Of a stretch of DNA of 64,000 nt, positions 27,873 to 46,103 are shown in pieces. The first letter of the stretch is position 1. Each line of letters starts with the position of its first letter. The notes under the pieces are model-generated. The model saw only the letters and a program-made list of their open reading frames with translations, was not told the DNA's origin and did not search any database. The stretch is from Bacillota bacterium (GTDB lineage Bacteria; Bacillota; Limnochordia; DTU087): the NCBI GenBank assembly GCA_012798695.1, contig JAAZMR010000079.1:9733-73732 (forward strand), written 5' to 3'. The position numbers were made by a program, and so were the translations under genes.

Positions 27873-27909
27873 AGGAGACTCGAGCTTCGCTAGAGGCCTC
27901 GAGTCTCCT
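27873..27909. terminator. bidirectional terminator, 12-bp stem AGGAGACTCGAG / CTCGAGTCTCCT
   Basis: Perfect inverted repeat between convergent OsmC (+) and Gfo/Idh/MocA (-) genes. Confidence 0.6.
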
Positions 27910-27928
27910 GTACTATTCCTTAAGAGGG

Positions 27929-28879
27929 CTATAGGGCTACTGGTTGGCCGGTCTCGGCTGATGCTAGGATGGCCAAGCTAAGTGCCAAGGTCTTCTTTGC
28001 CTCCTCCGGATCTAGTGGGTAGGCGGTTCCGGTGCGAACAGCCTCAATGAAAAGGCGATCCTCTTCTCGATACATGTCTAGGTCTTTGGGTTGGTAGACT
28101 TCGGGTTCGGCGCCCTGCCGGTATACCATGATCGCTCCACCCTGGCCAGTACGCAGTACGCCTTTGGTGCCGACGAGACCAGACTCGAGCCAGCTGGTGG
28201 CTGAAGACCAGGAAGCCATGATCTGGCCGATACCACCTTGAGCGAATTCAAGCAGTCCCACCACATTGTCCTTAATGTCTACATCAGGCAGGGCTGTCTT
28301 GGCGAGGCCCTGGACTCTTACCACGTCTCCGACCACGTAACGCAACCAGTCCAAGTTGTGGGTAGTCTGTTCGGTGAGCATGCCTCCACCAATCGCCTGG
28401 CTCTTGAGCCAAGGGGCAGGAGGAATGGGGCTCATGCGGGTAATCCAAGCAAGCGTGATTTCTCCTATTTTACCACTGGTAACGATCTCTTTGCACATTT
28501 GTGCCCATGGCAGGAAGCGGAGACAGTAACCTATACCCAGCAGCCGTTCATTCTCTTGGGCAGTCTCGATCATCTCATCGGCTTCCTCGAGAGATAAAGC
28601 CATTGGTTTTTCACAGAAAACGTGCTTACCGGCTCTTAAAGAAGTAACAGTTATGTCTCTGTGGCTATCTGGGGGAGTACACACCCATACTGCATCCACT
28701 TGCTCGAGGGCATCATGGTAATCGGTGAAAGCTTGACATCCCACCATTTCAGCTAGTTCCTCGGCCCGCTCAGGGATAATGTCCACTGCTGCATGGATCT
28801 TGGCGCCGCCTATCTGCTGGAGCTGTTGGGTGTGACGGTTTCCGATTCCTCCACAGCCAACCATAGCGATTCGCACCAC
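27929..28879 (-). CDS. Gfo/Idh/MocA family NAD(P)-dependent oxidoreductase
   Basis: N-terminal Rossmann MVGCGGIGNRH. GTG start with AAGGAG 8 nt upstream. Confidence 0.85.
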   Translation of the reverse strand: MVRIAMVGCGGIGNRHTQQLQQIGGAKIHAAVDIIPERAEELAEMVGCQAFTDYHDALEQVDAVWVCTPPDSHRDITVTSLRAGKHVFCEKPMALSLEEADEMIETAQENERLLGIGYCLRFLPWAQMCKEIVTSGKIGEITLAWITRMSPIPPAPWLKSQAIGGGMLTEQTTHNLDWLRYVVGDVVRVQGLAKTALPDVDIKDNVVGLLEFAQGGIGQIMASWSSATSWLESGLVGTKGVLRTGQGGAIMVYRQGAEPEVYQPKDLDMYREEDRLFIEAVRTGTAYPLDPEEAKKTLALSLAILASAETGQPVAL

Positions 28880-29028
28880 AATTACCACTCCTTGAATAAA
28901 TGATGTAATCAAATGCCATGGTATGAATTCCTGCTATTGGCGAAGTATCCTGCTCTTGATTAGTCAGGCCTGTACAATAACCCGGTATTCGGGAAAGGGA
29001 TACGGGCAGTATAAGTGGAACCTTCCAT

Positions 29029-30042
29029 TTGGATATTAAGAGAAAGGGAGGAGTTTGTGTGTCGAGATTCCAAGTCGATAACTGTAAGTTTCACGGTCTA
29101 GAGGCCATAAGCTTGAAAGATACCAAGAGCGGTTGGGAGGGAATGGTGGTTACAGAGGTGGGCAGCAACTTGATTAGCCTGACCTCTCCTAACCAAGGAC
29201 TTGATGTGCTGCGGACTCCCGATCACCTTGATGCATTCATGGCAAAGGCAACAGGCTGGGGATTTCCAGTATTGATGCCCCCTAATCGCATAAGTAATGG
29301 CCGATTTACTTTTGACGGGCGGGAGTATGTATTTGAGATCAATGAAGCAGGTAAGAACCATATCCACGGATTGGTGCACAGCCTGCCTTGGCGAGTAATG
29401 GCTACTAATACCGATCACTCAGCATCGGTTACTACTGCTATCCGTTCGGATGATCATCCCAGCATCAAGCGTTCTTATCCTCATTCTTTTGAGTTGAGAA
29501 TGACTTTTTCTCTTCAGGAGGCCAGGATCGATATTACGGTGGAAGCAGAGAATTTCGGTAGTGAAGCTATGCCCTTCGGTATCGGGTTCCATCCGTATTT
29601 TAATGTGCCTTTGTCGCCAGATAGCTCCAAGGGCCAATGTACTGTTAGGATCCCAGCAAGGCAAATGTGGGAGCTGGAGGAGTGCCTGCCCACCGGCCGA
29701 CGTCTGCCGGTTAGTGGCAAGCGAGATTTGAGTCGACCGACTACTCTGACGACAATTATGCTGGATGATGTATATACTGATTTGGCATTCACTGACGGTG
29801 CATCGATAGCAGAATACAAGGATAATGGTGCAGGGCTCACTGTCCGGTATGGTGCTACTCAGGAATTCAAGCATTGGGTAGTGTGGACCGGCAAGAGCCC
29901 ACAAGATCCATTTGTGTGCCTGGAACCTTACACATGGGTAACGAATGCACCGAATTTATCACTACCACCGGAAGAGACTGGCCTCATCGTCCTACAAGGA
30001 GGAGAGACGTTTACCAGCAGAATGTGGTTGGAGATTGACTGA
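29029..30042 (+). CDS. aldose 1-epimerase family protein (galactose-mutarotase-like)
   Basis: Mutarotase-like beta-sandwich length, conserved His/Glu positions. Weak by-eye call. Confidence 0.6.
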   Translation: MDIKRKGGVCVSRFQVDNCKFHGLEAISLKDTKSGWEGMVVTEVGSNLISLTSPNQGLDVLRTPDHLDAFMAKATGWGFPVLMPPNRISNGRFTFDGREYVFEINEAGKNHIHGLVHSLPWRVMATNTDHSASVTTAIRSDDHPSIKRSYPHSFELRMTFSLQEARIDITVEAENFGSEAMPFGIGFHPYFNVPLSPDSSKGQCTVRIPARQMWELEECLPTGRRLPVSGKRDLSRPTTLTTIMLDDVYTDLAFTDGASIAEYKDNGAGLTVRYGATQEFKHWVVWTGKSPQDPFVCLEPYTWVTNAPNLSLPPEETGLIVLQGGETFTSRMWLEID

Positions 30043-30080
30043 CTTGCAGCGGTTCTGACATAAGAAGAAATCGGCGAGTT

Positions 30081-30111
30081 AGGGCTGGAGGAGAGGGCTT
30101 CCCCAGCCCCT
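30081..30111. terminator. bidirectional hairpin GGGCTGG ... CCAGCCC between convergent genes
   Basis: 7-bp GC stem at 30081-30111. Confidence 0.5.
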
Positions 30112-30192
30112 ATCTTGCATGAGAGTAACTGAATAGCACGGTGATCGCCAGAATGATATCATGCCCAGCTTAATTCTGCAGAGGGACTCCAT

Positions 30193-31383
30193 CTAGGGGT
30201 GATCAGGAGTGTCGCTAGACGAAGCCAGATCAGGATGGGCTATACACCCCATGATCAATGGTACGTGGGCAATGTACAGATCGTTGAATAGTACATGGAC
30301 CCAGAAGGAAATCATCATGGCAAAGGCAATACGGCGGTAAGCTGTATTGTCTTGTATGAGAGGTTTGATTATAGAAACGGCCATCCAACCGAAGAAGAGC
30401 GTAAACCCCACTAGCCCCCAACCGGTCAGTACAAAGAAGTAAAGGCTGTGTGGGCTCCTAGCCTTGATGTAGCCATCGGGTCGGTACAGTGCATATGTTC
30501 TGCCATAATGTCCTGGACCGATACCGAATAGGACATGGTCCTTGAACATATTCCAACTAACTTCCCAGATCTGCAGACGTCCAACATTGCTCGAGTTAGT
30601 AGTCACATTCGCGATCGACATTATGCGTCTGGAGAGCCCCGGCCACTGAGATATGCAAATGACGACAATCATGCCGAGAACCACGATCACTTTCCAGTGC
30701 TTCCTGACCATCTGGCTATTCATGGCTATCAAGATGATGATAGCCGCTAATGAGCCAACAATGGACCCTCGGGAGTAAGTAGTAAAAACGCCCAGAAGCG
30801 CACTAAGGCTGGCCGCGAGATATAGCCAGCGATGCTGTGATTTATATAGAAAGAAGCCCAAACCTCCCGCTATTCCTGCCTCCAGCATGGCGGCTAGACC
30901 GTTATCAGCCATACCGAGGACATTGCCCCGACCTCTATGAAACGAGGCCAATATGGGGAATGAACCATGCCAGATGTTCAAACGCAACAAGTGGCTCGCA
31001 AAAACCACTAAGCCTAAGAGCCCACATCCCAGAGTTATGGCTTTGAGGAAGTCACGCGCATTAACAATACCCCAGCGTCCCAAAGCATAGATAAAGATGA
31101 ATACTAATGGGATAGGCATATTGATCAAGGCTTGTCCCTTGTCGGGAGCTAAAGCAGCACTGATCATACCGCTGATCAGTAAACCGATCAGTGCCCCATA
31201 GGTAACCCGGTCAGAACGGATATTTTTGATGACCTCCTTGCACTTAGTGAGTAGGGTGCAATAATAGACTAGCCCCAGTGCGGGGCTGATGGGAACAAGC
31301 AGTCCCCATCGTGTATCTCGGTCACGAATATCCATAGTCAGCATTCCCTTCGGCCATGGTTGAAGTACGAGCAGACGTGTCAA
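30193..31383 (-). CDS. O-antigen ligase / Wzy_C-like polytopic membrane protein
   Basis: At least 10 TM helices with a large periplasmic loop in O-antigen-ligase-like arrangement. Start codon uncertain. Confidence 0.5.
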   Translation of the reverse strand: MTRLLVLQPWPKGMLTMDIRDRDTRWGLLVPISPALGLVYYCTLLTKCKEVIKNIRSDRVTYGALIGLLISGMISAALAPDKGQALINMPIPLVFIFIYALGRWGIVNARDFLKAITLGCGLLGLVVFASHLLRLNIWHGSFPILASFHRGRGNVLGMADNGLAAMLEAGIAGGLGFFLYKSQHRWLYLAASLSALLGVFTTYSRGSIVGSLAAIIILIAMNSQMVRKHWKVIVVLGMIVVICISQWPGLSRRIMSIANVTTNSSNVGRLQIWEVSWNMFKDHVLFGIGPGHYGRTYALYRPDGYIKARSPHSLYFFVLTGWGLVGFTLFFGWMAVSIIKPLIQDNTAYRRIAFAMMISFWVHVLFNDLYIAHVPLIMGCIAHPDLASSSDTPDHP

Positions 31384-31584
31384 CCCTGAAAATATTCTCC
31401 AAAGCCCTTGGTGTCGCCTGCTTCCTAACCGGTATTCACAATGTTCAGGAAGTAATGATCAACACATCCATACACGGGGACTCCATCTTTTCCGGGGTTC
31501 GCAGGGTTTTGCTCTAGCTGGCAAGAATTAAGTTTTTGGATACAAATAGCAGGAACATGCAAAACAACAGAAAGGTGATACGAT

Positions 31585-32166
31585 ATGTCGAATGCTTGGT
31601 CGTCAGCTGCCTGGTCGCACATCACGGGGATAATGAGCAAATTGCCAGCGACCTTACTCACATTGGCTGTGGGAGCCGCAATCGTCAAACTGCTGAAGTT
31701 AATCGTGGGCCGTGCTATGTCAGTTACCCGCATAGATCCCACTTTAGGTACATTGCTGCAATCGGTCGTGGGTTTCGCGGGTTGGGTTTTTGTTTTGGCT
31801 GCTGCCACAGCCTCCTTAGGAATGCAGCAGGTATCTCTGGCCCTGGGAGGCTCTATTGCCCTGGTGGCCATGGCCTTGACTTCGAGTATCAATTCAGTCA
31901 CCCAAGACCTTTTGGCTGGAGTTTTTCTCATAGCTGATCAGGATTTTAAAGTAGGGTATACGGTGCAGACTGGGTCCCTGCAGGGAATAGTAGAATCTGT
32001 CACCATACGCAAGACCAAGATTCGAGATGCGGAGGGTGTGTTGCATACGGTTCCTAACCGATTGATTGACAATGCCACCTACACACTACTAGATGACGGC
32101 ACCGCGTCAAAAGAGGAGTCAGAGGCTGATGGGAAACAGCCTCAAGACTCAGATAAGACGGCCTAG
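31585..32166 (+). CDS. small-conductance mechanosensitive channel (MscS family)
   Basis: TM region followed by the MscS beta-domain motif (GVLHTVPNRLI). Confidence 0.8.
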   Translation: MSNAWSSAAWSHITGIMSKLPATLLTLAVGAAIVKLLKLIVGRAMSVTRIDPTLGTLLQSVVGFAGWVFVLAAATASLGMQQVSLALGGSIALVAMALTSSINSVTQDLLAGVFLIADQDFKVGYTVQTGSLQGIVESVTIRKTKIRDAEGVLHTVPNRLIDNATYTLLDDGTASKEESEADGKQPQDSDKTA

Positions 32167-32221
32167 AGTGAGGGGTGAAGAGACGGCAGTGACCGAGCAG
32201 CGGTCTGTAAAAGCCCGCGAG

Positions 32222-32803
32222 CTAAGGAAGGAGTGCCGGTCCGGCCTGGTTGACGGTGGTGACTGCCGCTAAACGAGTAGACTTTACCTGATTGGGTCCG
32301 CTATACTCCACTCTGTAAAGGGAGACACCGGCACCAGCCAATTCCAGTAGGATCAAGTCATGCTTTCCGTCTGCTTTTTTCTCGCTGATCAGGGCTTTTA
32401 GTTGACCTATTTGCACCCAGCGCGAGTAAACGGGAGTCCTTTCGCCTTTAGAGGATTCTACAAACACCTGCCATGGCTGGCCATCATCCCAGAGATATTC
32501 ATGGGGGTTGTTGGGTGAACGCTGCACTCTGGCTATGATAGTCACTGTGTCTTCGAGCCCATCTCCATCTAGATCGGCTGTCACAGTCTGGCGGTAGTCC
32601 CACCCCGGCTCATCCTCAGCTACCGGGGAATAGGTTTTGTCAACTAGATCTACGGTAGTAGTTTGGTCTGCGGGTGTGCTGAGCTCCGTCTGTGGCGGAC
32701 CGGGTTGTATGGGAGCCTTCGGGGAACTGCCCCATAGCAGGAAACCGAGGACCACGGCCAAGATCCAACCAGATAGTGTCCAAAACCATTGCTGAGGTTT
32801 CAA
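32222..32803 (-). CDS. hypothetical membrane-anchored exported protein with DxDGDG motif
   Basis: N-terminal TM helix, Pro/Thr linker, ADLDGDGLEDTV Ca-binding-like motif. Confidence 0.5.
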   Translation of the reverse strand: MKPQQWFWTLSGWILAVVLGFLLWGSSPKAPIQPGPPQTELSTPADQTTTVDLVDKTYSPVAEDEPGWDYRQTVTADLDGDGLEDTVTIIARVQRSPNNPHEYLWDDGQPWQVFVESSKGERTPVYSRWVQIGQLKALISEKKADGKHDLILLELAGAGVSLYRVEYSGPNQVKSTRLAAVTTVNQAGPALLP

Positions 32804-32971
32804 TAGATCGAGCCTCCTTTTGACATTTCAAGTTGTAATACCCTGGATTATCCGATAGACAGCAAAAATCTTCTAGGATTCGCAAGAGAATCCCTGGTTT
32901 GATCGGGCAAATCTATTTATAGTATCAATAGGAGTCATAGAATAAGCGAAATTCTTTAGGAGGTAGCAGTA

Positions 32972-34012
32972 GTGACAGCTTTAGAGCGAGTCAGCAAAAC
33001 TCTGCGATTAGAAGAGCCCGATCGAGTACCAGTATATCCAATACTTAGCGGTGTCACCCGTCACCTAGTGAATGCGAGTTATCGGGAGTGGGCCACTAAC
33101 GCGGAAATTTGTGCCGCAGCTTACATCAAAGCGGCTGAACAGTATCGGCTGGATGTCATCTGCACTTTGACAGATCTATCAGTGGAGGCCGCTGATTTTG
33201 GTGCCCAAATAGTTTACCCGGAAAATGAGGCAGCCCACCCTGAATTCGGCACACGGCGTCTTGCTGCTGTAGAGGACTACCGCACCGTGCAACCCGTAGA
33301 TCCACATACGGGCCCTCGGATGAGCGAGCATATCAAGCTGTGCCAGAGGTTGGTAGAAGCTAAGGGGAAGGAAATACCGATAGTTGCCTTTACCTTTGGC
33401 CCGTTAGGAATCACCAGCATGCTAAGAGGTCAGGAAGAGTTCTTTATGGATCTGATCTTGGAACCAGAGGCGGTCAAGTATGCTATTGCAGCAGTAACGG
33501 AAACCTTGATGGACTATTATGATGCCTTGATGGATACAGGGGTGCATGCTATCATGATGGATACCCTATTTGCCTCTGAATCGATTATGAGCAAATCTAT
33601 GTGGCTGGAGTTTGAAGGGGAATATGTAAGACGTTTGGCAGAGCGAGTCCACGAGCGGGGTTGCATGATGATGGTTCACAATTGCGGTAATGGCATCTAT
33701 TTTGATGCCCAGATTGAGACTATGCAACCAGAAGCGATTTCCTTTCTCCATCTTCCAGACGATGTGACAACTCCGGCTGAGTTGAAAAAGAAGTATGGGC
33801 ACCAGACTACCCTCATCGGACATGTTGATCCTACCTGGATCGTTCAGGCCAGCGAAGATGAGGTAAGAGATGAGTGCAAAAAGCAAATCGATCTATATAA
33901 ACAGGGTGGCGGATACATCCTGGCCACGGGATGTGAGTACCCCGCCAATGCTGATCTGCGTAATGCAGAGGTGATGGTGGAAACCGCCGAGACCTATGGG
34001 CGATATGCGTGA
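32972..34012 (+). CDS. URO-D family methyltransferase, MtaA/CmuA-like (Zn-binding H-x-C-G type), paralog 2
   Basis: MMVHNCGNG (H-x-C-G) and C-terminal GGGYILATGCE Cys, characteristic of corrinoid:substrate methyltransferases. GTG start after AGGAGG. Confidence 0.75.
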   Translation: MTALERVSKTLRLEEPDRVPVYPILSGVTRHLVNASYREWATNAEICAAAYIKAAEQYRLDVICTLTDLSVEAADFGAQIVYPENEAAHPEFGTRRLAAVEDYRTVQPVDPHTGPRMSEHIKLCQRLVEAKGKEIPIVAFTFGPLGITSMLRGQEEFFMDLILEPEAVKYAIAAVTETLMDYYDALMDTGVHAIMMDTLFASESIMSKSMWLEFEGEYVRRLAERVHERGCMMMVHNCGNGIYFDAQIETMQPEAISFLHLPDDVTTPAELKKKYGHQTTLIGHVDPTWIVQASEDEVRDECKKQIDLYKQGGGYILATGCEYPANADLRNAEVMVETAETYGRYA

Positions 34013-34154
34013 TTCTGCAATCTAGACTATCCAGATGAGGGGATGTCACTTTGCGGCAGCCGTGAGGATGGCCTCCCTCCTATTCAACTGGGAGAAGCGG
34101 TTAACGGGAAGGCTATTGGGCTAGGATAAGCCATGTCTAGTCAGGTGTCAGTTA

Positions 34155-34183
34155 TTGACGTATGCTCATAAAGGGGATATATT
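34155..34183 (+). promoter_or_regulatory. promoter TTGACG-17-TATATT upstream of mrp
   Basis: Hexamers with a 17-nt spacer, about 60 nt upstream of the mrp start. Confidence 0.45.
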
Positions 34184-34245
34184 GGGGATAAGCAGGACTT
34201 AAGTGAGCCATACTCTTTGGTAGTTTTGGCAGATAGGGAGGCTTT

Positions 34246-35046
34246 TTGATGGAAACTCAGAGTCAGCACGGGACTAGTGATTCCCACAGTATTGGCAAGG
34301 TACCACCCCATGAATTGAGCAATATTAAGCACGCAATCGCGATCATGAGTGGTAAGGGAGGGGTTGGGAAATCGTCTGTGACGGCTTTACTGGCCACCGC
34401 CCTTCGCCGTCAAGGTTTGCAGGTTGGGGTTCTGGATGCTGATATCACCGGCCCCAGCATTCCTAGGTTGTTTGGGGTCCATCGCCGGCCCGAAATAGCT
34501 GAGGTAGGGATGTTCCCTCCCCGGAGTGCAACAGGCATTGAAATCATGTCTCTTAATTTATTACTTGAGAATGAAGATGACCCGGTTATCTGGAGAGGGC
34601 CACTGATCGGTGGTGCTGTAAAGCAGTTTTGGACCGATGTAATCTGGGGGGACCTAGATTATCTTTTGATCGATTTGCCGCCAGGAACTGGTGATTCGCC
34701 TCTAACTGTCATGCAGATTTTCCCCTTGGATGGCCTGGTGATCGTTACTTCACCACAGGAATTGGCCAATATGGTCGTCAGAAAGGCGATTAATATGGCC
34801 GACAAAATGCAAGTTCCTATTATCGGCCTGGTAGAGAATATGAGCTATGCCATTTGTCCCCATTGTCAGGAAAGATGGGAGCTGTTTGGGCCCAGTCGAG
34901 GGGCTGCCGAGGCAGAGAATAGCGGTATTCCCTTCTTGGGAGCGATACCTTTAGATCCGAAACTGACCGCCTTGTGTGATTCGGGGGCCATAGAGCAGTA
35001 TGATGGCAAGGTTGTTTCTGAAATGCACGCATGGCTGCAAAGCTAG
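34246..35046 (+). CDS. mrp: Mrp/NBP35 (ApbC) family Fe-S cluster carrier ATPase
   Basis: Deviant Walker A SGKGGVGKSS, CxxC motif (CPHC). Confidence 0.9.
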   Translation: MMETQSQHGTSDSHSIGKVPPHELSNIKHAIAIMSGKGGVGKSSVTALLATALRRQGLQVGVLDADITGPSIPRLFGVHRRPEIAEVGMFPPRSATGIEIMSLNLLLENEDDPVIWRGPLIGGAVKQFWTDVIWGDLDYLLIDLPPGTGDSPLTVMQIFPLDGLVIVTSPQELANMVVRKAINMADKMQVPIIGLVENMSYAICPHCQERWELFGPSRGAAEAENSGIPFLGAIPLDPKLTALCDSGAIEQYDGKVVSEMHAWLQS

Positions 35047-35119
35047 TCGATAGTGGTGGGCCATGAAAGAGAAACAGGCAGGTATTCTGCCTGTTTTGCC
35101 GTATTAGAAGGGCAGAGTA
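34914..35119 (+). repeat. direct repeat copy 1 (206 bp): mrp 3' end plus terminator hairpin AAACAGGCAG-GTATT-CTGCCTGTTT
   Basis: About 89% identical to 36278..36483 by manual alignment. Confidence 0.85.
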
Positions 35120-35148
35120 GATAGATATTCTGCTTAGGAGCCGATACT

Positions 35149-35940
35149 ATGCCACATACGACTAGCCCCACCAAAGCACCTAGTACGCTTCGGTTCTCTG
35201 AGCCATACCCGGCTGGGCATTTCAGGCAAGGTTTGCGTATGGGCTTACCCATTGCTTTTGGGTATTTCCCTACCGCACTGGCTTTTGGAGTGGTGGCTCT
35301 AGAGGCTGGGCTGTCAGCGAAACAAGCAATGCTGATATCCGCACTAGTTTTTTCTGGTGCAGGACAGTTCATGGCGGCGAATTTGGTAGCTGCGGGGGCG
35401 GCTCCCATGGCTATTATCGTGAGCAACTTGGTCGTCAATCTGAGGTATTTTGTAATGTCAGCTAGCCTGTCCCGGCGTTTGCATCTCAGTTGGTTGCAGG
35501 CAGGTATTATCGGCTTCGGAATCACTGATGAGACATTTGTCATGAATTACTTCGCCCATCCAGACAAACCTGCCGACAGTGTCACCGGTACATTAGTGGA
35601 GTCCGAGCAATCTCCCTTGCCTGCCAGCCTGATCTTAGGTGTGAATATTATGGCCTATGTTGGCTGGGTTGCCGGTACCTATGTAGGCACCATATTTGCC
35701 GGCGTTTTACCTGCGGAGTTTGCTACTGGTATGGGGGTTGTACTATACGCCATGTTTATAGCTCTGCTCATTCCTGCAGTGGCCCGCTCGTTAGGAGTCG
35801 GAGCTATCGCGGCAGCTGGTGGAGGATGCTGCTGGCTCCTTAACCGATATTTGCCCTTTGGTTGGGCGATGATCTTGGCAACCACCATGGTGGCAGGTCT
35901 GGGGGCTTGGTGTTGGGGTAAGGGGGTAGATGAGCTATGA
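35149..35940 (+). CDS. azlC: branched-chain amino acid exporter AzlC
   Basis: AzlC family polytopic membrane protein. Confidence 0.85.
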   Translation: MPHTTSPTKAPSTLRFSEPYPAGHFRQGLRMGLPIAFGYFPTALAFGVVALEAGLSAKQAMLISALVFSGAGQFMAANLVAAGAAPMAIIVSNLVVNLRYFVMSASLSRRLHLSWLQAGIIGFGITDETFVMNYFAHPDKPADSVTGTLVESEQSPLPASLILGVNIMAYVGWVAGTYVGTIFAGVLPAEFATGMGVVLYAMFIALLIPAVARSLGVGAIAAAGGGCCWLLNRYLPFGWAMILATTMVAGLGAWCWGKGVDEL

Positions 35941-36239
35941 ACGTACAAACCTTCACCGTGATGCTGTTGGGAATGGTGTTAGTAACCTATCTACCTCGTA
36001 CGCTTCCCCTTTTTCTCTCTAATGACCGCCCGCTGCCGACTTGGTTGGAGCGATGGTTGAAGTTGGTACCATATACAGCCTTGGGAGCCTTGATCTTCCC
36101 CGGCATCCTAACAGTGGATCCCAACAGGCCTTGGGTAGGGGTGTTAGGTGGCATCGCGGCGATTCTGGTTAGTTGGAAATGGAACAACCTTGTCGCCACG
36201 GTGATCGTCGCTTTTCTAGTCGTATATGGTCTTAGCTAG
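35937..36239 (+). CDS. azlD: branched-chain amino acid exporter AzlD
   Basis: 100-aa 3-TM protein overlapping azlC by 4 nt. Confidence 0.8.
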   Translation: MNVQTFTVMLLGMVLVTYLPRTLPLFLSNDRPLPTWLERWLKLVPYTALGALIFPGILTVDPNRPWVGVLGGIAAILVSWKWNNLVATVIVAFLVVYGLS

Positions 36240-36277
36240 CTTGAAGGGTAGGAAACCATCTTCGAGTTCAGTAGAAT

Positions 36278-36483
36278 AGAGAATAGCGGTATTCCCTTCT
36301 TGGGAGCGATACCTCTAGAGCCAAAACTGACTGCTGTGTGTGATTCGGGGGCCATAGAGCAGCATCATGGCAAGGTTGTTTCTGAAATGTACGCATGGCT
36401 GCGAAGCTAGTCAATAGTAGTGGGTCACAATGGAGAAACAGGCAGGTATTCTGCCTGTTTTACCGTAATAGAAGGGCAAAGTA
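36278..36483 (+). repeat. direct repeat copy 2 (206 bp), diverged duplicate of the mrp 3' end plus hairpin
   Basis: See copy 1. Retains the same 10-bp-stem hairpin. Confidence 0.85.
36279..36410 (+). pseudogene. relic 3' fragment of an mrp/apbC paralog (43 codons in frame, no start codon)
   Basis: Translates as ENSGIPFLGAIPLEPKLTAVCDSGAIEQHHGKVVSEMYAWLRS, against the mrp C-terminus ENSGIPFLGAIPLDPKLTALCDSGAIEQYDGKVVSEMHAWLQS. An upstream in-frame stop lies at 36249-36251. Confidence 0.7.
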
Positions 36484-36562
36484 TCGCATATCGTAATTGG
36501 TTGGTAGGGATTGGCTCTGATAGTGCTGTTAGTTCTTCCTAGAGTCTATGAGGGGGGAAATC

Positions 36563-37822
36563 ATGGCTCGGAGTGTTACGCCTTTTGGTGTGATGGTCAA
36601 ACCTGCGGGTCCGGCATGTAACTTGGCCTGTCAGTATTGTTTCTATCTTGACAAATCAGCTCTCTTTCCTGAGTCGCGGACTTTCCGGATGGATGAGAAC
36701 TTGTTAGAGGAGTTTATCCGTCAGTATTTTGAGCTTCAGCCGGGTCCGATGGTGCCGTTCGTTTGGCAAGGGGGTGAACCGAGTTTGATGGGTCTGGAGT
36801 TCTTTGAAAAGGTGGTAGAACTCCAAGACCGCTACTTGCCGTCTGGTTGGCGAGTGACGAACGCTTTCCAGACTAATGGCACGCTGCTCACCGAAGAGTG
36901 GTGCGATTTCTTTCACGAGCATGATTTTCTAGTGGGGATTAGTCTAGACGGGCCACCAGAGCTACATGATGTTTACCGGCAGAATAAACAAGGTGGCCCC
37001 ACGGCCACTGTAGTCTTGCAGGCTTTACACCTGCTGCAAGAAAAGAATGTGGAATATAATATTCTGTGTGTAGTCAATGATGTGAATGCCCAGCATCCTC
37101 TTTCAGTCTACGAATTCTTCCGGGCTCAAGGTGTGCAGCATGTTCAGTTTATTCCATTGGTTGAGCATTTAGGCAATGGCAGAACCACTACTAGATCGGT
37201 ATCAGGTTTGGCGTATGGCCGGTTTCTTACCGCGATTTTCAACGAGTGGGTAGCTCATGATCTGGGGCAGATGTTTGTTCAGCTGTTTGAAGAATGCCTA
37301 TCGGTATGGGCTGGCTATGGTTCCCATCTCTGCGTTCTCGCACCGACTTGCGGGCAGCAGCTGATCCTGGAACATAATGGAGATTTATACGTATGTGATC
37401 ATTTCGTATTTCCCAGATTCAAGCTCGGGAATCTGCGGCAGAAGCCTCTTCATGAGTTAATCGAATCTCCACAGTTAAGGGATTTTGGTTTAGATAAGCG
37501 TCGTAGGTTGCCTGACTATTGCCGGCAATGCGAAGTGCTATTCATGTGCAACGGGGGATGCCCCAAGGACCGTTTTCTTTCCACTCCTTCAGGGGAGGAG
37601 GGCCTCAACTATCTTTGCGCGGGATATAAGCAATTCCTCAACTATGTTACTCCATTCATGGAGGATATGGCCGACTTGTTTCATCAGCGAGCACCACTGG
37701 CAGTGATGCAAGAGGGGGCAGTCACACGTATTCATGATTTGTGGAGACATGTCGGCCGCAATGAGCCGTGTCCGTGTGGAAGTGGACTAAAATACAAGAA
37801 GTGTTGTCAGGGGCTACAATGA
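36563..37822 (+). CDS. radical SAM/SPASM enzyme, anaerobic sulfatase-maturating-enzyme (anSME)-like, with C-terminal SEC-C zinc motif
   Basis: CNLACQYC (Cx3Cx2C) near the N-terminus; FQTNGTLLTEEW; Cys-rich SPASM region; C-terminal EPCPCGSGLKYKKCC. GAGGGGGG RBS at ATG 36563. Confidence 0.8.
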   Translation: MARSVTPFGVMVKPAGPACNLACQYCFYLDKSALFPESRTFRMDENLLEEFIRQYFELQPGPMVPFVWQGGEPSLMGLEFFEKVVELQDRYLPSGWRVTNAFQTNGTLLTEEWCDFFHEHDFLVGISLDGPPELHDVYRQNKQGGPTATVVLQALHLLQEKNVEYNILCVVNDVNAQHPLSVYEFFRAQGVQHVQFIPLVEHLGNGRTTTRSVSGLAYGRFLTAIFNEWVAHDLGQMFVQLFEECLSVWAGYGSHLCVLAPTCGQQLILEHNGDLYVCDHFVFPRFKLGNLRQKPLHELIESPQLRDFGLDKRRRLPDYCRQCEVLFMCNGGCPKDRFLSTPSGEEGLNYLCAGYKQFLNYVTPFMEDMADLFHQRAPLAVMQEGAVTRIHDLWRHVGRNEPCPCGSGLKYKKCCQGLQ

Positions 37823-38017
37823 GGTAGGATCTATGGCCCCGGCCTTGGGGCCGGGCTCCACCCGTAACGAGTAAGCTCTTGCCTATCTGACTTGCTGCAG
37901 GTCAGGCGACTGACTTGCTTTCAGTCCTCCGAAAGGCAGATATGGCGGTAGATAAGTAAGGTAAGCAAAGAAGGGGTCGCCGGAATCGGCAACCCCTTAT
38001 CTACAGCAGCCTAAATG

Positions 38018-38988
38018 CTAGAAGATCGATTCTGGTACGTAATAGTCTTCTGCATTTTCAGCAGTAATCAACTCTGCTGCCAGAATGATCTTGGATGGAA
38101 TCTGGTTCTGGTAGAAGCCGCAAAGCTTCTGGCCCCGCAGGCCCATGACCGCACAGCTGATACCGGTGGCAATCATGGAAGGTGGGTAGGTGACGTCAGC
38201 TCTTACTAGTGGGTCGCCGTCCATAATCTTCTTGATAATATCTTTGGAGCCGGCGCCACCTAGGAATAGTTTGACATCGTTTCGTCCAGACTCTTTATAT
38301 GCCTGTAGGACCCCTTTTAGTACGTCATCATCCTGAGCCCAGACGGCATCGATCTCCTTGTATTTCTGGAGGTAGTTTTCCATGATCTCTAGGCCCTTTT
38401 GGGTAGACCAGTATGCAGGCTGAGAATCGAGAATCTCCATACCGGGATAGTCTTCGATGACAGCATTGAAAGCATCTACCCGCTCGCTGTTAATCACACA
38501 GGGGATGCCTTCCAAGACAACGACTTTGCCCTTGCCATTTAGTTCTTCGACAATCCACTCGGCAGCTACTCGGCCCATACCCGGATTATCTCCAGCTACA
38601 TAGACATGCTCCACCGGCTTGGTCAGGCCTCTATCGACTGAGACGACAAAGATGCCCTCCTTATATACTCTCTCCACTATAGGAGTGAGAGGGGCGGAAT
38701 CATGGGCTAGTATGACTAGGCCATCAATCCCTTTGACCATTAGGTCTTCGACCTGGTCAACCTGCTGAGTAGCAGAATCCGCGGTGACGAGGAAGAATGT
38801 TACATCTGGATCCTTGGCTTTCCAGTCGTTGATCGCCTGGTTAGCCCACCAGACGATGCCACCAGTCCATCCATGGTCAGCAGTGGGGATAGAGACTCCG
38901 ATGCGCAGTGGCTCTGCCGCAAAGCTGGGTAGAGAGAAAAACATGGCTGCAGCCAGTGCCACAGCTATAATGAAAGCTGATCGTTTCA
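38018..38988 (-). CDS. sugar ABC transporter substrate-binding protein (periplasmic-binding-protein type I, ribose/AI-2-like)
   Basis: Signal peptide, PBP fold. GGAGG RBS 7 nt before ATG 38988. Confidence 0.8.
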
Positions 38989-39211
38989 TCCATAATCCTC
39001 CTAGTAGTTTGATTTTTGGCCTCAATTTACTGTCGGCTAACACAATCGCTGCTCTCCGGTAACCTAGGTTTCTAATTCGGTTTGGTCTATAGAACCACCT
39101 CCTAAACGCCCAAATGCCTTAGGGTTCTGCAAGGCTAATAGTTCAGACCAAAGTATGAAACTCTGTTTGGGCTTCTTGCCCAGTTTCCGAAAAACTAAGA
39201 CCAGCTCGGCT

Positions 39212-40165
39212 CTAAGCTTTCTTGCGTTGAATCAGGACCGCGCCAATGATGACCAACCCTTTCACAGTACCTTGTAGGTAGGGTGACACTCCTAACATGT
39301 TCAACATGTTATTGATAATACCGAGGATAATGGCTCCGATGACAGTACCAGACATGCTGCCGACGCCACCGGTCATGGCAGTGCCTCCAATAATAACGGC
39401 GGCGATGGCGTCTAGTTCGAAATTGACACCGGCATTAGATGAGCTGACTGAGTTGAGTCGAGATGACATGAGGATGGCAGAAACAGCCACCGTAAATCCG
39501 ATAATGACATAGGCAATCAGCCGCACCTTGTCCACATCGATAGCTGAGTATCTAGCAACACGCTCATTGGAGCCCACTGCACATACATAGCGTCCATAGC
39601 GAGTGTTGTTCAAAATGATGCCAAACAGGGCAGCGAGTCCAAAAAACAGCCAGACGGGAATGGGGATACCGAGAAAATAGCCCATACCCAGTTGGGGATA
39701 GAGGTTGCTGGTGGAGCGAAATTCGCCGGCATTACTGATATAAAGGGTGAAAGAACGATAGACAGCCATAGTACCTAGGGTAACGATAAAGGGTGCTACT
39801 TTACCTTTGGTGACGATCAGGCCATTGATTGCACCTAGGAGCATGCCTAGCAAGATCCCGAAAACAATGGCAAGCACAATAGCTATGAGACCGCCACCAA
39901 AATAGTTAAGCACCATTATGACTAGTCCGCCGACTAAGGCGGTCATCGAGCCGACTGATAGATCAATTCCACCGGAAATGATTACGAAAGTCATACCTAG
40001 CCCGATGATGCCCGTATAGGAAACCTGGCGCAAGATATTGAGAATGTTGCGGGTCTGGAGAAAGTACGGGCTGGCTATGGAAGACAAGACAAACAGAACG
40101 ACCAGCGCAAATAAGGGACCGTGTTTCTCTAGATCAAGCTTGCCTTTGAGTAGATTCGTTTGCAC
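39212..40165 (-). CDS. sugar ABC transporter permease (RbsC/BPD-2 family)
   Basis: Polytopic membrane protein with an RbsC-like conserved loop. Confidence 0.85.
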   Translation of the reverse strand: MQTNLLKGKLDLEKHGPLFALVVLFVLSSIASPYFLQTRNILNILRQVSYTGIIGLGMTFVIISGGIDLSVGSMTALVGGLVIMVLNYFGGGLIAIVLAIVFGILLGMLLGAINGLIVTKGKVAPFIVTLGTMAVYRSFTLYISNAGEFRSTSNLYPQLGMGYFLGIPIPVWLFFGLAALFGIILNNTRYGRYVCAVGSNERVARYSAIDVDKVRLIAYVIIGFTVAVSAILMSSRLNSVSSSNAGVNFELDAIAAVIIGGTAMTGGVGSMSGTVIGAIILGIINNMLNMLGVSPYLQGTVKGLVIIGAVLIQRKKA

Positions 40166-40167
40166 AA

Positions 40168-41670
40168 TTAAGCACCCTCTTTCAAACCTGTTGCATAGAA
40201 CATGATCTCTGCTTCACTCAGCTCGCCGGCCTCTAGGATGCCGGTAATGCGTCCCTCCCGCATTACTACTACTCGATTGCATAAACCCAGAATCTCTTCC
40301 ATTTCCGAGGAGATGAGGATACAGGAAATGCCGGACTTGACTAGGTCATGAATAAAATAGTAGACTTCTTTCTTGGCATTCACATCAATACCGCGGGTGG
40401 GTTCATCGATGATGAAGATCTCAGGGTGAGGATCTAGGCTCTTGGCCAGAGATACCTTTTGCTGGTTTCCGCCGCTTAAGTATTCAAGTAGTGTTCTAGT
40501 CGATGGTGTACGGATATTGAAGGCCTTTATGTAGTCTTCTGTTCGGTGCTTCTCTTTCCTACGATCAATGAGAGGTTTGCAGTATTCATCCAAAGAAACC
40601 AGGGTGATATTACTGGCAACATCAAAACCGGTCAGGACGCCGGTCCCCTGCCGATCTTCAGAAAGGTAAGCAATCCCGTTTCTTACGGCATCGATGGGGG
40701 ATGAAATCATCTGTTTCGTGCCATTGATCACGATTTGACCGGAACTAATCTGGCGAATACCGATCAGGGCTTCAGCTAACTCTGTCCGTCCGGCTCCGAT
40801 CAGGCCAGAAAAGCCTAGGATTTCCCCTTTATGGAGATCGAAGTTAATATCATGTAAGAGCCCCGGAATGGAGAGGCTGTGGACCTGTAAAACCGTAGTG
40901 GCTTGGGGTGTTGTTTTGGGTGGGAAGATCTGGTTTAGCTCCCGGCCAACCATACGGCGGGCCATCTCCTGTTCATCTAGAGAGTCTGTCGGGTCAAGAC
41001 TAATAAACTCTCCATCTCGCAAGATCATCACCCGATCACAGATGCGTTTCACTTCACGCAGCTTATGTGATATGTAGATGATGGTCACACCTATTTCTTT
41101 CAATCTCTGCATGAGGCGGAAAAGAATATCGATCTCATGTTGTGTGAGAACAGTGGTTGGTTCATCCATGATCAACAGCCGAGAGTCATAAGCAACAGCT
41201 TTGGCGATCTCGACCATCTGTTTTTGGGCCACACTGAGATCTTGAATCTTGGCATCGGGGGGAATGTCGGTATCGAGTTCTTGCAGGAGCTCATTGGTTT
41301 TTTCTTTCATCTGCTGCTTATCTAATAGGTATTTGCCTTTGGTCAGCTCTTTACCGAGGAAGATATTCTCATATACATTGAGGTCATTGATTAGGTTGAA
41401 TTCCTGAGGAATTGTGCTGATGCCCAGTCGCTTGGCCACACTGGTATCACGAATATAGACTGGGTTCTTGTCAAAGAAGACTTGGCCTTCAGACGGGGTA
41501 TAGGTACCGTTGAGGATCTTGATGAATGTTGATTTCCCGGCCCCGTTTTCACCAATAATACCTAGGATTTCTCCCTCAAATATCTCGACATTAATCTTGT
41601 TTAGGACTGTCACACCGGAAAAACTCTTGGAAATATCTACGGTCTTTACGAGAACCTGATTAGGCTTCAT
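40168..41670 (-). CDS. sugar ABC transporter ATP-binding protein with duplicated ABC domains (RbsA/MglA-like)
   Basis: Two Walker A/signature/Walker B sets in 500 aa. Confidence 0.9.
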   Translation of the reverse strand: MKPNQVLVKTVDISKSFSGVTVLNKINVEIFEGEILGIIGENGAGKSTFIKILNGTYTPSEGQVFFDKNPVYIRDTSVAKRLGISTIPQEFNLINDLNVYENIFLGKELTKGKYLLDKQQMKEKTNELLQELDTDIPPDAKIQDLSVAQKQMVEIAKAVAYDSRLLIMDEPTTVLTQHEIDILFRLMQRLKEIGVTIIYISHKLREVKRICDRVMILRDGEFISLDPTDSLDEQEMARRMVGRELNQIFPPKTTPQATTVLQVHSLSIPGLLHDINFDLHKGEILGFSGLIGAGRTELAEALIGIRQISSGQIVINGTKQMISSPIDAVRNGIAYLSEDRQGTGVLTGFDVASNITLVSLDEYCKPLIDRRKEKHRTEDYIKAFNIRTPSTRTLLEYLSGGNQQKVSLAKSLDPHPEIFIIDEPTRGIDVNAKKEVYYFIHDLVKSGISCILISSEMEEILGLCNRVVVMREGRITGILEAGELSEAEIMFYATGLKEGA

Positions 41671-41980
41671 CGAAACTCACCTCGGCCAGTATGATTGCCG
41701 CGAAAACTCCCTTCAATTTGCCATTACTCTTTAGAATTCACCTTGTTGGCAGCAACTCCTTTTTCCTTTTAGAGGCCGGCCTACTCACCAACTCTCCCTT
41801 GTCAGGGGTCCTAGCCAAGTGCCAAGCAGATCTCTTTCGCCTGGCATTTGGCCATATCTGATGGCCGCCAATGTATTCTTCCCTATGGATTGGCATAGTC
41901 CTTCTCCTTTGATAGATTGAGAACCTGTTGCCACATGCAAGGTGAGGGCACCTTAACAAGGGAGCCTTGCCGGGGCCAGA

Positions 41981-42010
41981 TTGCATCAACTTGACATCCA
42001 TGCGTATAAT
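41981..42010 (+). promoter_or_regulatory. promoter TTGCAT-18-TATAAT upstream of the DUF3298 gene
   Basis: Consensus -10. About 120-nt leader to ATG 42131. Confidence 0.4.
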
Positions 42011-42130
42011 GGTAGACAAAGAGCTTCAAGCTAGGCCTTCTAGTTAGAAATTCCGAGGATAAAAGTGTGGGGGTCTAGCCTAGCCGCATCATGATATTCT
42101 TTGTCACACAGCGATTTGAGGAGGGGTTCT

Positions 42131-42892
42131 ATGAGATACTATAGATCAAGAATCTATCATCTAGGAGTCATATTAGCCCTATTGTTCTGTTTTGCTGCTA
42201 TGAGCTCGGTGGGGTGGGGCAGGGAACTGCAGGCCAAACCCACATTAGAGCTAAAGGCAAGAACAGTTTCCCATGAGACGGAGCTAGTTTCCGGAGAGAC
42301 CAAAATACCGGTGATCAAGGGTTTAGAAGACTCTGACTTAGAGAAACAGCTAAATGAGCGGTGGGCAAGGGACATCTCCGATTTCGTGGATAAAGTGGTG
42401 GTGGAAGCTCAGGCTTTTGCCGACGAGTTTGGCGAAGAGCTTAGCCATTGGCTGCCCTTCGAGGTGGCAGTTGATTTTCAAACAGGGTATCTCGGTGAAA
42501 GATATGTCAGCATACCAATCGTATATTACTCTTTTACCGGGGGAGCCCATGGATTCCATTATCAACTGGCTACAAATGTAGACCTGCATACCGGCAAAGA
42601 CCTTACTCTCCAGGATCTGTTTACCGCAGGATATGATTATCGCCAGGCTATTCGGGATGAGGTACTCCGCCAAATGCAAGCCAATCCCTCTATCTACTTT
42701 GATGAGGCCATGGCAGATTCAGAGATTGCCCCTGATCATCCCTTCTATTTGTCAGCAGCAGGCATAGTGGTTTATTACGGACTTTATGAGGTAGCCCCCT
42801 ACTGCACTGGGATCCCCGAGTTCACTATTCCTTTTGCTTATCTTTGGGAGGGGTTGCAGCCAGCCATTCAAGCCATAGTTACGGGAAGGTAG
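42131..42892 (+). CDS. DUF3298/DUF4163 domain protein (RsiV-ectodomain-like) with N-terminal TM anchor
   Basis: YYSFTGGAHGFHY motif typical of DUF3298. AGGAGG RBS 8 nt before ATG 42131. Confidence 0.6.
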   Translation: MRYYRSRIYHLGVILALLFCFAAMSSVGWGRELQAKPTLELKARTVSHETELVSGETKIPVIKGLEDSDLEKQLNERWARDISDFVDKVVVEAQAFADEFGEELSHWLPFEVAVDFQTGYLGERYVSIPIVYYSFTGGAHGFHYQLATNVDLHTGKDLTLQDLFTAGYDYRQAIRDEVLRQMQANPSIYFDEAMADSEIAPDHPFYLSAAGIVVYYGLYEVAPYCTGIPEFTIPFAYLWEGLQPAIQAIVTGR

Positions 42893-42941
42893 GTTAGCGT
42901 ATGGCGGTTGTTGTCACTTGCTCGTCCTACTAGAGAACAGG

Positions 42942-42969
42942 AAAGGCGGGCTCGGCCCGCCCTTCCATT
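42942..42969. terminator. bidirectional terminator GGCGGGC-TCG-GCCCGCC
   Basis: 7-bp GC stem between convergent genes. Confidence 0.55.
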
Positions 42970-43002
42970 TAGAGCACCAGTTTGAATTGCCAACGGCAAA
43001 TG

Positions 43003-43488: not shown

Positions 43489-43585
43489 ATGTTGGATTCC
43501 TCCCTTTCAAACTGCCAAGCTTAGTAAGGCGATATGACAGACTATGGTTATAAGTTTCCCCACTATCTGGTAGATTCCTGCCCAG

Positions 43586-44251: not shown

Positions 44252-44459
44252 AGATTAATCCCCCTTTTTTGACACAACCTACTAGATTTAGCATCTCTAT
44301 CCTTGCTTTATCCAATTGTAACACAAGTCTTTGAGTTGGCATACCTACATCCTCCTTGGGTTCAACGCAGGAAACTGCTGATCCTAACAAGAATTACCGG
44401 TTGGAGAGATAAAGGCAGGGCAGAGCTGCCTTTTGGCCCAGGGAGGGTGATTTTTGAAC

Positions 44460-45989: not shown

Positions 45990-46103
45990 TGGCCGGCAAG
46001 TTTTCTATAGATGGCATGTCAAACCTACTTATGGGTTTTCACAATGGCTTCTCAGAAGAAAGGGGGTGGGGCGCACTGCTCCCTGTTGCTGGGTGATAGT
46101 AGT

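Follow-up and report, generated by a model that had tools for sequence, protein, structure and literature searches.

Direct repeats of an mrp 3′ end around azlCD: a probable duplication relic beside a native gene pair

In the window examined here (the whole stretch of DNA that was analysed, 64 kb in length) two genes of the azlC and azlD families lie between two copies of the 3′ end of a third gene, mrp. This gives the locus the appearance of an inserted cassette and raises the question of whether azlCD entered the site between mrp and the downstream radical SAM gene (rSAM), or whether the genes are native and the second gene end is the newcomer. The features of the locus are as follows.

34249..35046, + strand: mrp, intact, encoding an Mrp/NBP35 family P-loop ATPase of the Fe-S cluster carrier type (open reading frame; PF10609/PF01656 on an identical protein).
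34914..35119, + strand: repeat copy 1, the functional parent copy (repeat search, self-BLASTN).
35072..35096, + strand: stem-loop 1, AAACAGGCAG-GTATT-CTGCCTGTTT (repeat search, folding, alignment).
35149..35940, + strand: azlC, encoding an AzlC family membrane protein (PF03591; orthologues at the same position in L012, L103 and L109/L110).
35937..36239, + strand: azlD, encoding an AzlD family small membrane protein (PF05437).
36240..36277, + strand: spacer of 38 nt from azlD to copy 2 (no significant similarity found).
36278..36483, + strand: repeat copy 2, probable mrp 3′-end relic with stem-loop and tail (repeat search, self-BLASTN, translation, tblastn).
36436..36460, + strand: stem-loop 2, AAACAGGCAG-GTATT-CTGCCTGTTT, within an identical 29-nt block at 36433-36461 (repeat search, folding).
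36484..36562, + strand: spacer of 79 nt from copy 2 to rSAM (by-eye comparison, blastn-short).
36563..37822, + strand: rSAM, encoding a radical SAM/SPASM anaerobic sulfatase maturase homologue with a C-terminal SEC-C motif (TIGR03942, PF04055, PF13186, PF02810).

A previous reading of the DNA made from the sequence alone, referred to here as the sequence-only reading, had placed azlC and azlD exactly between 206-bp direct repeats of the same gene end, and a repeat search together with self-BLASTN of the whole window bears this out. The copies at 34914-35119 and 36278-36483 are the sole direct repeat in the 64 kb to reach significance, aligning over 206 nt with 0 gaps and 20 mismatches (90.3% identity, E=1.3e-72); the diverged repeat itself is thus real, but the hand count of about 22 mismatches and about 89% identity was slightly off. 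The only other self-match is a 40-nt palindrome at 55602-55641. The two copies are in direct orientation with a start-to-start distance of 1,364 nt, and the perfectly identical runs between them are 37, 29, 26 and 23 nt long. Copy 1 comprises the final 133 nt of mrp, stop codon included, and 73 nt of the mrp-azlC spacer, in agreement with its earlier description as the last 130 nt or so of the gene plus a hairpin (35072-35096). Public contigs from other samples, at least 99.9% identical to the window, cover both junctions: L001 (27889-36183) runs through copy 1 into azlCD, L006 (36164-47822) and L007 (36285-38171) run through copy 2 into rSAM, and L002 covers mrp up to the copy 2 hairpin. Both repeat junctions are thus present in independent metagenome assemblies, which excludes faulty assembly of the window as the source of the structure.

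The bracketed genes are predicted, from their adjacent PF03591 and PF05437 domains, to encode a pair of the AzlCD exporter family. The stop end of azlC and the start of azlD share 4 nt, and the azlC product scores 66 bits with NCBIfam TIGR00346 against a cut-off of 332, which is below equivalog level. Upstream, the mrp product scores 337 bits with NCBIfam MrpORP and 207 bits with ApbC, both under the equivalog cut-offs; downstream, the rSAM product scores 474 bits with TIGR03942 against a cut-off of 349. The same gene order, mrp-azlC-azlD-rSAM, occurs in three related species (L012/L013/L014, L103 and L109/L110), in all of which the azlD-rSAM spacer contains no mrp fragment and is short (25 nt in L012, 46 nt in L103 and 37 nt in L110, vs 323 nt in the window). 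Identities to the window in L012, L103 and L110 are 84%, 80% and 78% for Mrp, 74%, 68% and 63% for AzlC, and 79%, 75% and 70% for AzlD, with the rank L012 > L103 > L110 common to all three proteins; rSAM identity is 75% in L012 and 72% in L110. GC content is flat over azlCD (0.50-0.54), and none of the genes called on L001 and L006 (27889-47822) has a recorded recombinase or transposase family.

The synteny of the relatives, the congruent divergence and the flat GC content all point to azlCD being native and copy 2 being the lineage-specific novelty. The order mrp-azlCD-rSAM evidently goes back to the ancestor of a group of four or more species, and the additional ~300 nt between azlD and rSAM appear, among the four species compared, only in the lineage of the window. 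The sequence-only reading had offered two histories, and neither agrees with these data. That azlCD largely replaced a second mrp is contradicted by the three species in which the order is kept with spacers of 25-46 nt and no mrp fragment, and that azlCD was inserted by recombination is contradicted by the occupation of the same site in these relatives, by divergence congruent with the flanks, by the flat GC content and by the absence of a recombinase among the called genes. With azlCD between mrp and rSAM in three related species, the interpretation of the pair as an inserted cassette fails.

Copy 2 begins 38 nt past the azlD stop (36239), close to the 40 nt or so first given. Its coding remnant spans 43 codons (36279-36407, with a stop at 36408-36410) and, read in the Mrp frame, gives 43 residues, 6 of them replaced (86% amino acid identity to the window Mrp, E=6e-20 by tblastn). 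An in-frame TAG lies upstream at 36249-36251, with no start codon between it and the fragment, and the hairpin is retained at 36436-36460. Three of the replacements, D236E, L242V and Y251H, fall at near-invariant Mrp residues: among the 120 homologues listed, from a search returning 8000 at E<=1e-30, D236 is present in 118, L242 in 97 (V in 0) and Y251 in 119 (H in 0). The earlier description of a truncated 3′ fragment that still reads as an Mrp C-terminus with altered residues, lacks a start codon, follows an in-frame stop and keeps its hairpin is therefore confirmed in each respect. Polarising the differences against the outgroups L012 and L103 assigns D236E, L242V and Y251H, together with 2 of 3 tail sites, to change in copy 2, and 3 sites, all of them synonymous, to change in copy 1. 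Between the two copies pS is 0.136 and pN is 0.060, giving a pN/pS of 0.44 vs 0.12 for whole mrp between species, in which the underlying split of 6 non-synonymous and 4 synonymous coding differences is not enough, taken alone, to tell neutral decay from weak constraint. These comparisons indicate that copy 1 has kept its protein-level constraint since the duplication and that copy 2 is a non-coding, dead and decaying fragment of the mrp 3′ end.

The source of the fragment had been taken to be an mrp/apbC paralog, a view that we do not share, since copy 2 has 90% nucleotide identity to the lineage's own mrp and tblastn finds no second Mrp-like gene elsewhere in the window. Copy 2 is nearer to the window's own mrp than to any C-terminus among the 40 best-scoring database Mrp proteins inspected by eye, and the next-best Mrp proteins (84% overall identity) have C-termini far more unlike it. 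A head2-type C-terminus (LEPKLTAVCDSGAIEQHHGKVVSEMYAWLRS) is likewise absent from the 40 best-scoring of the 8000 homologues (120 listed; read by eye).

We consider it probable that copy 2 is a non-functional relic of a segmental duplication of the lineage's own DNA, lying downstream of a native and vertically inherited azlCD. It shows the features of such a relic: similarity to a parent, truncation, relaxed constraint (from small numbers) and absence in related species. The duplicated piece would consist of the 3′ end of the resident mrp and the conserved stem-loop that precedes azlC, now placed in the azlD-rSAM spacer. The simplest route would be a tandem duplication of a 1,364-bp unit (34914-36277) with subsequent loss of the second azlCD, and a one-step ectopic copy would be an equally good one. 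The 38-nt spacer has no significant match to the rSAM upstream region, the relatives' spacers or the rest of the window, and the ~55 nt after copy 2 match nothing by blastn-short, such that tandem duplication followed by deletion has left no direct trace on either side of copy 2; the last ~20 nt before rSAM, the ribosome-binding region, resemble the spacers of the relatives, by eye only and with no statistics. Two candidate traces were discarded. The 38 nt after azlD were considered as a decayed rSAM ribosome-binding site and start, and 48 of 300 shuffles do at least as well; the 79 nt before rSAM were considered as containing azlC or azlD remnants, and 119-239 of 300 shuffles do at least as well, with blastn-short finding nothing in either case. 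No closer relative at 85-95% nucleotide identity was found, leaving the duplication undated and with no intermediate. The closest Mrp relatives among the matches listed are at 84% identity, and a scan of GTDB genomes with Mrp (best 66% identity, none with azlCD synteny) is uninformative on close relatives.

A part of copy 2 that departs from this pattern of decay is the stem-loop. The 29-nt block that contains it has 0 mismatches vs 10 in the remaining 44 non-coding nt of the repeat (hypergeometric P=0.004, post hoc), an identity that may reflect selection, on a terminator or cis element now situated between azlD and rSAM, or gene conversion. The predicted stem is 10 bp long. Across the four azlCD-bearing species a 19-nt core including the loop shows at most one base difference, near-invariance to be set against ~75% identity in their coding DNA, and in the alignment the covariation is restricted to pairs at the base of the stem. 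The motif is absent 3′ of mrp in three relatives that lack azlCD. Rfam gives no family match, only two chance-level hits, and a scan of JGI metagenomes with the 19-nt core yields 8 matches, all unrelated to the locus. The sequence-only reading had named this element a terminator; the hairpin following mrp is indeed present, but the label is unproven, as on the + strand it fails the simple terminator rule (>=5 T in 8), being followed by TTTT in the window and by ATT/TTT in the relatives. An outer helix sequestering the azlC ribosome-binding site is seen in single-sequence folds and is lost in the alignment fold, and was rejected.

It is possible, if rather doubtful, that copy 2 has been retained for this stem-loop, which would then constitute a second azlCD-linked cis element, between azlD and rSAM, that alters rSAM expression relative to azlCD. 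The element would act as a terminator or insulator, or as a hairpin recognised by a protein or an RNA, with the mrp coding part as a passenger; this proposal is compatible with the explanation of copy 2 as a duplication relic, and adds a function to it. The intact block, the near-invariant and covarying stem-loop of the four species and its absence from relatives without azlCD all speak in its favour, as does the lack of any hairpin in the 25-46 nt between azlD and rSAM in the relatives, from which it follows that the insertion alters the layout of the operon. The P value is post hoc, however, the identity is explicable by gene conversion or by chance in so short a block, the U-tract rule fails and Rfam offers no family; moreover, 2-3 sites of the conserved tail behind the hairpin show decay in copy 2, and contigs L002 and L003 carry a loop variant of copy 2, if it is real.

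The repeats might also matter for the stability of azlCD. In one public contig, L005, mrp is followed directly by rSAM, without azlCD: the sequence is that of copy 1 through the stem-loop and thereafter that of copy 2 and the downstream flank, which puts the point of crossover within the 29-nt block, and on either side ~1.1 kb of flank matches the window at 100% identity. The L005 assembly is fragmentary and of low coverage, and the same sample gives a contig with azlD, L008, whose end falls within the hairpin. Contigs L002, L003 and L004 all end at the hairpin (repeat offset 183), L004 and L003 share an overlap of exactly 55 nt, and L002 and L003 share a miscall-like T-to-G change at 36447, in the loop and 14 nt from the contig ends. 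Illumina sequence-specific errors are known at inverted repeats and GGC motifs (PMC3141275), a pattern that the loop change and the contig ends at the hairpin fit. L005 is possibly chimeric. The ends of L002, L003 and L004 were also considered as branches of recombinants, an idea dropped in view of the loop change near those ends and of L008 ending in the loop. Look-ups with the URO-D and sugar-binding proteins for further junction-spanning contigs provided nothing new. Two readings of L005 are thus left: azlCD was recently deleted through the repeats, or the contig was mis-assembled at the hairpin under low coverage.

Homologous recombination between the two copies would delete azlCD, leave mrp and rSAM intact and bring rSAM next to mrp, and the repeat pair is, to judge from its sequence, a possible deletion substrate. 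The earlier proposal that the repeats could mediate excision of azlCD therefore stands in so far as recombination would remove the genes, with a junction such as that in L005, but is weakened by the possible mis-assembly of that contig. An extension of these ideas that we regard as improbable is that the duplicated stem-loop is a functional azlCD-linked cis element before the sulfatase-maturase gene, and/or that the repeats drive recurrent and clean loss, possibly amplification, of azlCD, generating an on/off exporter polymorphism in the population. The host of such a polymorphism would be an uncultured biogas Firmicute.

Single-crossover (Campbell-type) integration leaves the homologous segment as direct repeats, and the arrangement could in principle have arisen from a circular DNA carrying azlCD and the mrp 3′ end of a ~10%-diverged relative, with a crossover into an empty mrp-rSAM site that made both of the repeats hybrid. 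L005 would then be a surviving empty site, and its mosaic is exactly that expected of one with a crossover in the 29-nt block. Such an acquisition is nevertheless very unlikely. With three related species carrying azlCD at this position and no relic, it needs a loss followed by a regain, and AzlC and AzlD show a divergence congruent with the genes on either side, with flat composition. The V242 and H251 of the supposed donor occur in 0 of 120 homologues and would require a long decay after integration, for which the L005 flanks, 100% identical over 2.2 kb, leave no time, and the head2-type C-terminus is found in none of the 40 best-scoring homologues inspected.

Islands integrated into gene 3′ ends are flanked by direct repeats of the gene's 3′ end, and gene-end repeats round an insert are the classic signature of these elements, but it is scarcely credible that a small integrative element (a genomic islet, integron cassette or transposon) targeted the mrp 3′ end, supplied a replacement gene end and left the repeats as att scars: no called gene in 27889-47822 has an integrase, recombinase or transposase family and the bracketed segment contains azlC and azlD only, the repeat search found no terminal inverted repeats, the sister species carry the insert without the repeats, base composition gives no signal, and identical att cores have little in common with repeats of this length and 10% divergence.

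The main value of this analysis, with copy 2 read as a duplication relic, is as a correction: the locus has cassette-like bracketing, yet it is the downstream repeat that is new here, azlC and azlD being native to the site. Should the deletion allele in L005 be genuine, it would offer a natural example of strain-level variation in gene content arising from a duplication relic, in which an amino-acid exporter is removed with both neighbours undamaged. The cross-species conservation of the stem-loop before azlC also provides a small lead on the control of AzlCD-type exporters outside Bacillus.

Among known systems, the gene pair resembles Bacillus subtilis AzlCD in having an AzlC-family gene followed by an overlapping AzlD-family gene, and differs in the lack of an adjacent azlB-type regulator and in an azlC score far below the equivalog cut-off. 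The B. subtilis bipartite AzlCD complex is described as exporting histidine and other amino acids (bioRxiv 10.1101/2022.07.07.499250; PMC10882977). The order of gene end, insert and second gene end is that of Campbell-type integration or of att duplication by islands; unlike those systems, azlCD is ancestral at its site and accompanied by no recombinase, the repeats are both long and diverged, it is the copy joined to the body of mrp that is conserved, and the L005 flanks are identical to the window. In its direct copies 1,364 nt apart and its identical blocks of 37, 29 and 26 nt, the repeat pair is similar to substrates of RecA-dependent deletion between short diverged repeats. Blocks of these lengths are near the minimum usually quoted for efficient recombination, and the L005 junction falls within one of them, but here the deletion is represented by one short contig from a low-coverage assembly. 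A further parallel is with gene-fragment relics of segmental or tandem duplication in bacterial genomes, in that copy 2 is truncated, has its intact parent 1.2 kb away, has no start codon, is under relaxed constraint and is absent in the sister species. It differs from them in that parent and relic bracket two unrelated intact genes, in the undecayed and conserved non-coding stem-loop that copy 2 bears and in that nothing is left of the presumed second azlCD. Copy 2 is in this light an ordinary duplication relic, a common kind of genome scar.

The azlC and azlD genes lie between two diverged copies of a direct repeat of 206 nt (90% identity in a repeat search of the window), the first of which includes the end of mrp, in the following arrangement:

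32972-34012, + strand, URO-D-like methyltransferase gene
34249-35046, + strand, mrp, product with PF10609/PF01656
34914-35119, + strand, repeat copy 1: final 133 nt of mrp including the stop, plus 73 nt of spacer
35149-35940, + strand, azlC, PF03591
35937-36239, + strand, azlD, PF05437
36278-36483, + strand, repeat copy 2: starts 38 nt past the azlD stop, with 79 nt from its end to the start of rSAM
36563-37822, + strand, radical SAM/SPASM gene (rSAM): anaerobic sulfatase maturase model plus SEC-C motif

BLASTN of the window against itself, the check proposed in the sequence-only reading, recovers this pair as a gap-free match with 20 mismatches (90.3% identity, E=1.3e-72) and no further direct repeat in the 64 kb; the structure is as that reading described it, and its figures of 89% and 22 mismatches are replaced by these. 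The sole other self-match is a 40-nt near-perfect palindrome, CCAATCCAGCCTCCTCTACTAGTAGGGGAGGCTGGATTGG, at 55602-55641 between ORFs 54511-55548 and 55697-56806, with no T-run after it. Both repeat copies hold the hairpin AAACAGGCAG-GTATT-CTGCCTGTTT. Read in the Mrp frame, copy 2 gives ENSGIPFLGAIPLEPKLTAVCDSGAIEQHHGKVVSEMYAWLRS followed by a stop, with 6 of 43 residues unlike Mrp (tblastn, 86% identity, E=6e-20), and an in-frame TAG at 36249 lies ahead of this reading frame, all in agreement with the initial description; tblastn shows no further Mrp-like gene across the window. Because contigs of other metagenomes cross both junctions, from copy 1 into azlCD (L001, L002) and from azlD across copy 2 to rSAM (L006, L007), all with identities to the window of 99.9% or more, the repeat structure is not an error of the window's assembly.

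On its sequence the mrp product is an Mrp/NBP35-family protein; it scores 337 bits against the NCBIfam MrpORP model and 207 bits against ApbC, both under the equivalog cut-offs. NCBI labels an identical Mrp as that of a 'Firmicutes bacterium' MAG, and the contigs with identical proteins come from biogas or fermenter metagenomes where their record names give a source. AzlC reaches 66 bits against the NCBIfam azlC model (cut-off 332), and the rSAM product 474 bits against the anaerobic sulfatase maturase model, above the cut-off of 349, with a C-terminal SEC-C metal-binding motif, CPCGSGLKYKKCC. In two or more full-length relatives (L012 4022-5281; L109 7008-8270) this maturase homologue directly follows mrp-azlCD, and no sulfatase gene is seen among its called neighbours. 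A second URO-D/MtaA-like methyltransferase paralog, 27% identical, lies at 23387-24055, about 9 kb upstream of the mrp-adjacent one.

The 20 differences between the copies, 10 at coding and 10 at non-coding sites, were polarised with the relatives' contigs L012 and L103 as outgroups. Copy 1 has the derived state at offsets 37, 54 and 57, all three synonymous; copy 2 has it at D236E, L242V, Y251H and two of the three post-hairpin tail sites. When aligned, the 120 best of 8000 Mrp homologues have D at position 236 in 118 cases, L at 242 in 97, with no V, and Y at 251 in 119, with no H. By the Nei-Gojobori method the copies differ with pS=0.136 and pN=0.060, which gives a pN/pS of 0.44 on small counts. 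Whole mrp compared between L012 and the window gives 0.12, and functional comparisons of these 43 codons give 0.21-0.29; a ratio near 0.5 would be expected of one constrained and one free copy. The changes at near-invariant residues and the relaxed pN/pS bear out the proposal that copy 2 is a relic of an mrp end, evidently a decaying one and derived from this lineage's own gene. It has all four of the tested defining features of a duplication-derived gene relic, and adds one more case to an ordinary type of genome scar. Since copy 2 retains ancestral synonymous states that are gone from copy 1, the duplication is old relative to strain-level variation among the contigs (0.02-0.14%); it postdates the split from L012.

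The sequence-only reading had also considered the locus consistent with azlCD as an inserted cassette, or as the replacement of a second mrp. Among the matches listed, Mrp identity of the nearest relatives is 84-75%; their gene orders are these (identities are to the window):

L012/L013/L014 (L012: Mrp 84%, AzlC 74%, AzlD 79%, rSAM 75%): mrp-azlC-azlD-rSAM-sugar-binding protein
L103 (Mrp 80%, AzlC 68%, AzlD 75%; rSAM not comparable, 54 residues on the contig): URO-D-mrp-azlC-azlD, then the rSAM start
L109/L110 (L110: Mrp 78%, AzlC 63%, AzlD 70%, rSAM 72%): mrp-azlC-azlD-rSAM-sugar-binding protein
L009 (Mrp 84%): URO-D-mrp, then a sugar-binding protein gene directly
L105 and L107: mrp in other contexts

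azlCD lies between mrp and rSAM in three relatives and is absent from this place in L009. The azlD-rSAM spacers of the three (25, 46 and 37 nt in L012, L103 and L110, versus 323 nt in the window) are too short to hold an mrp fragment, and no such fragment aligns in them. Species rank identically by protein identity for every gene compared, GC content is level across azlCD, and none of the called genes within 27889-47822 has a recorded recombinase or transposase family. From this shared order, congruent divergence, flat GC and lack of a recorded recombinase, mrp-azlCD-rSAM is the ancestral order of this small clade; azlCD is native to its position, neither an inserted cassette nor the successor of a second mrp. 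The novelty of the window's lineage is the roughly 300 nt between azlD and rSAM, 206 nt of which are copy 2; the 38 nt before and 79 nt after it have no significant likeness to the rSAM start region, azlC/azlD, the relatives' spacers or the rest of the window. Tandem duplication of the 1,364-nt unit 34914-36277, with later loss of the second azlCD, could have produced the present structure, as could one-step ectopic copying of 206 nt. In L009 (6798-6939 versus window 35046-38018) the sugar-binding protein gene is convergent with URO-D-mrp and directly follows mrp, an order that makes the stem-loop-azlCD-rSAM block (about 2.9 kb) an older insertion/deletion difference inside the clade.

The 29-nt block with the hairpin (repeat offsets 155-183) has no mismatches between the copies, and the remaining 44 of the 73 non-coding nt have 10 (P=0.004, for a block picked post hoc). 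A core, CAGGCAGGTATTCTGCC(T/C)G and then TTGCCGTAT (TTATCGTAT in L109/L110), shows little or no variation, including in its loop, among the mrp-azlC spacers of the four species with azlCD, the coding DNA of which is only about 75% identical; covariation is restricted to the stem base. The stem-loop lies at 35072-35107 in the window, 2835-2870 in L012, 4527-4560 in L103 and 5817-5850 in L109. The three relatives without azlCD lack the motif downstream of mrp; it matches no Rfam family, and fails a simple U-tract terminator rule on the + strand. The hairpin itself is as first described, but for these reasons its label as the mrp terminator is only one possibility, and a cis element linked to azlCD is no less likely. 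Its retention in copy 2 could reflect either selection or gene conversion, and a strongly conserved stem-loop before azlC, copied by duplication to the front of a sulfatase-maturase gene, is a modest lead.

The suggestion that the repeats could mediate azlCD excision stands as a possibility. With identical blocks of 37, 29 and 26 nt, the pair is a plausible substrate for homologous deletion, with a candidate product in L005, a 2,463-nt contig (sample ERZ27280802) in which identical mrp leads directly to rSAM. In the one 206-nt segment of this contig, 17 of 17 diagnostic sites through the stem-loop agree with copy 1 and 3 of 3 past it with copy 2; the contig then continues into the copy 2 downstream flank, and outside the repeat it matches the window at 100% identity for about 1.1 kb per side. 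An old ancestral empty site entered by a diverged donor circle is ruled out, since the copy 2 changes at invariant residues need a long time and the identical flanks allow none. L005 is either a recent deletion via recombination in the 29-nt identical block or an assembler mis-join there, and we give a real deletion a roughly even chance.

Caution over L005 is warranted: its sample also gives a 534-nt azlD contig (L008) ending within the hairpin loop, and three further contigs (L002, L003, L004) all end exactly where the 29-nt block ends. L002 and L003, independent assemblies (MEGAHIT and SPAdes) of different samples, have in common a T-to-G at 36447 in the copy 2 hairpin loop, 14 nt from the contig ends; L002 also has an A-to-G at 36436. 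Inverted repeats and GGC motifs are the two documented triggers of sequence-specific Illumina errors, which yield false SNPs and assembly gaps (PMC3141275), and the T-to-G is either a real copy 2 strain variant or a miscall at an inverted repeat with GGC. Because such errors cause gaps, and with the breaks at the hairpin and the shared loop change, we leave the contig ends out of the evidence for recombinants. A clean azlCD deletion polymorphism, possibly real, is a second modest lead.

The bracketed genes share the AzlC and AzlD Pfam families with the AzlCD complex of B. subtilis, which exports histidine along with other amino acids (bioRxiv 10.1101/2022.07.07.499250; PMC10882977). The geometry of the locus is the same as that of the att-site duplications of gene ends at genomic islands and of Campbell-type integration; unlike in those systems, there is no recombinase here, the bracketed genes are native, and their composition is not foreign.
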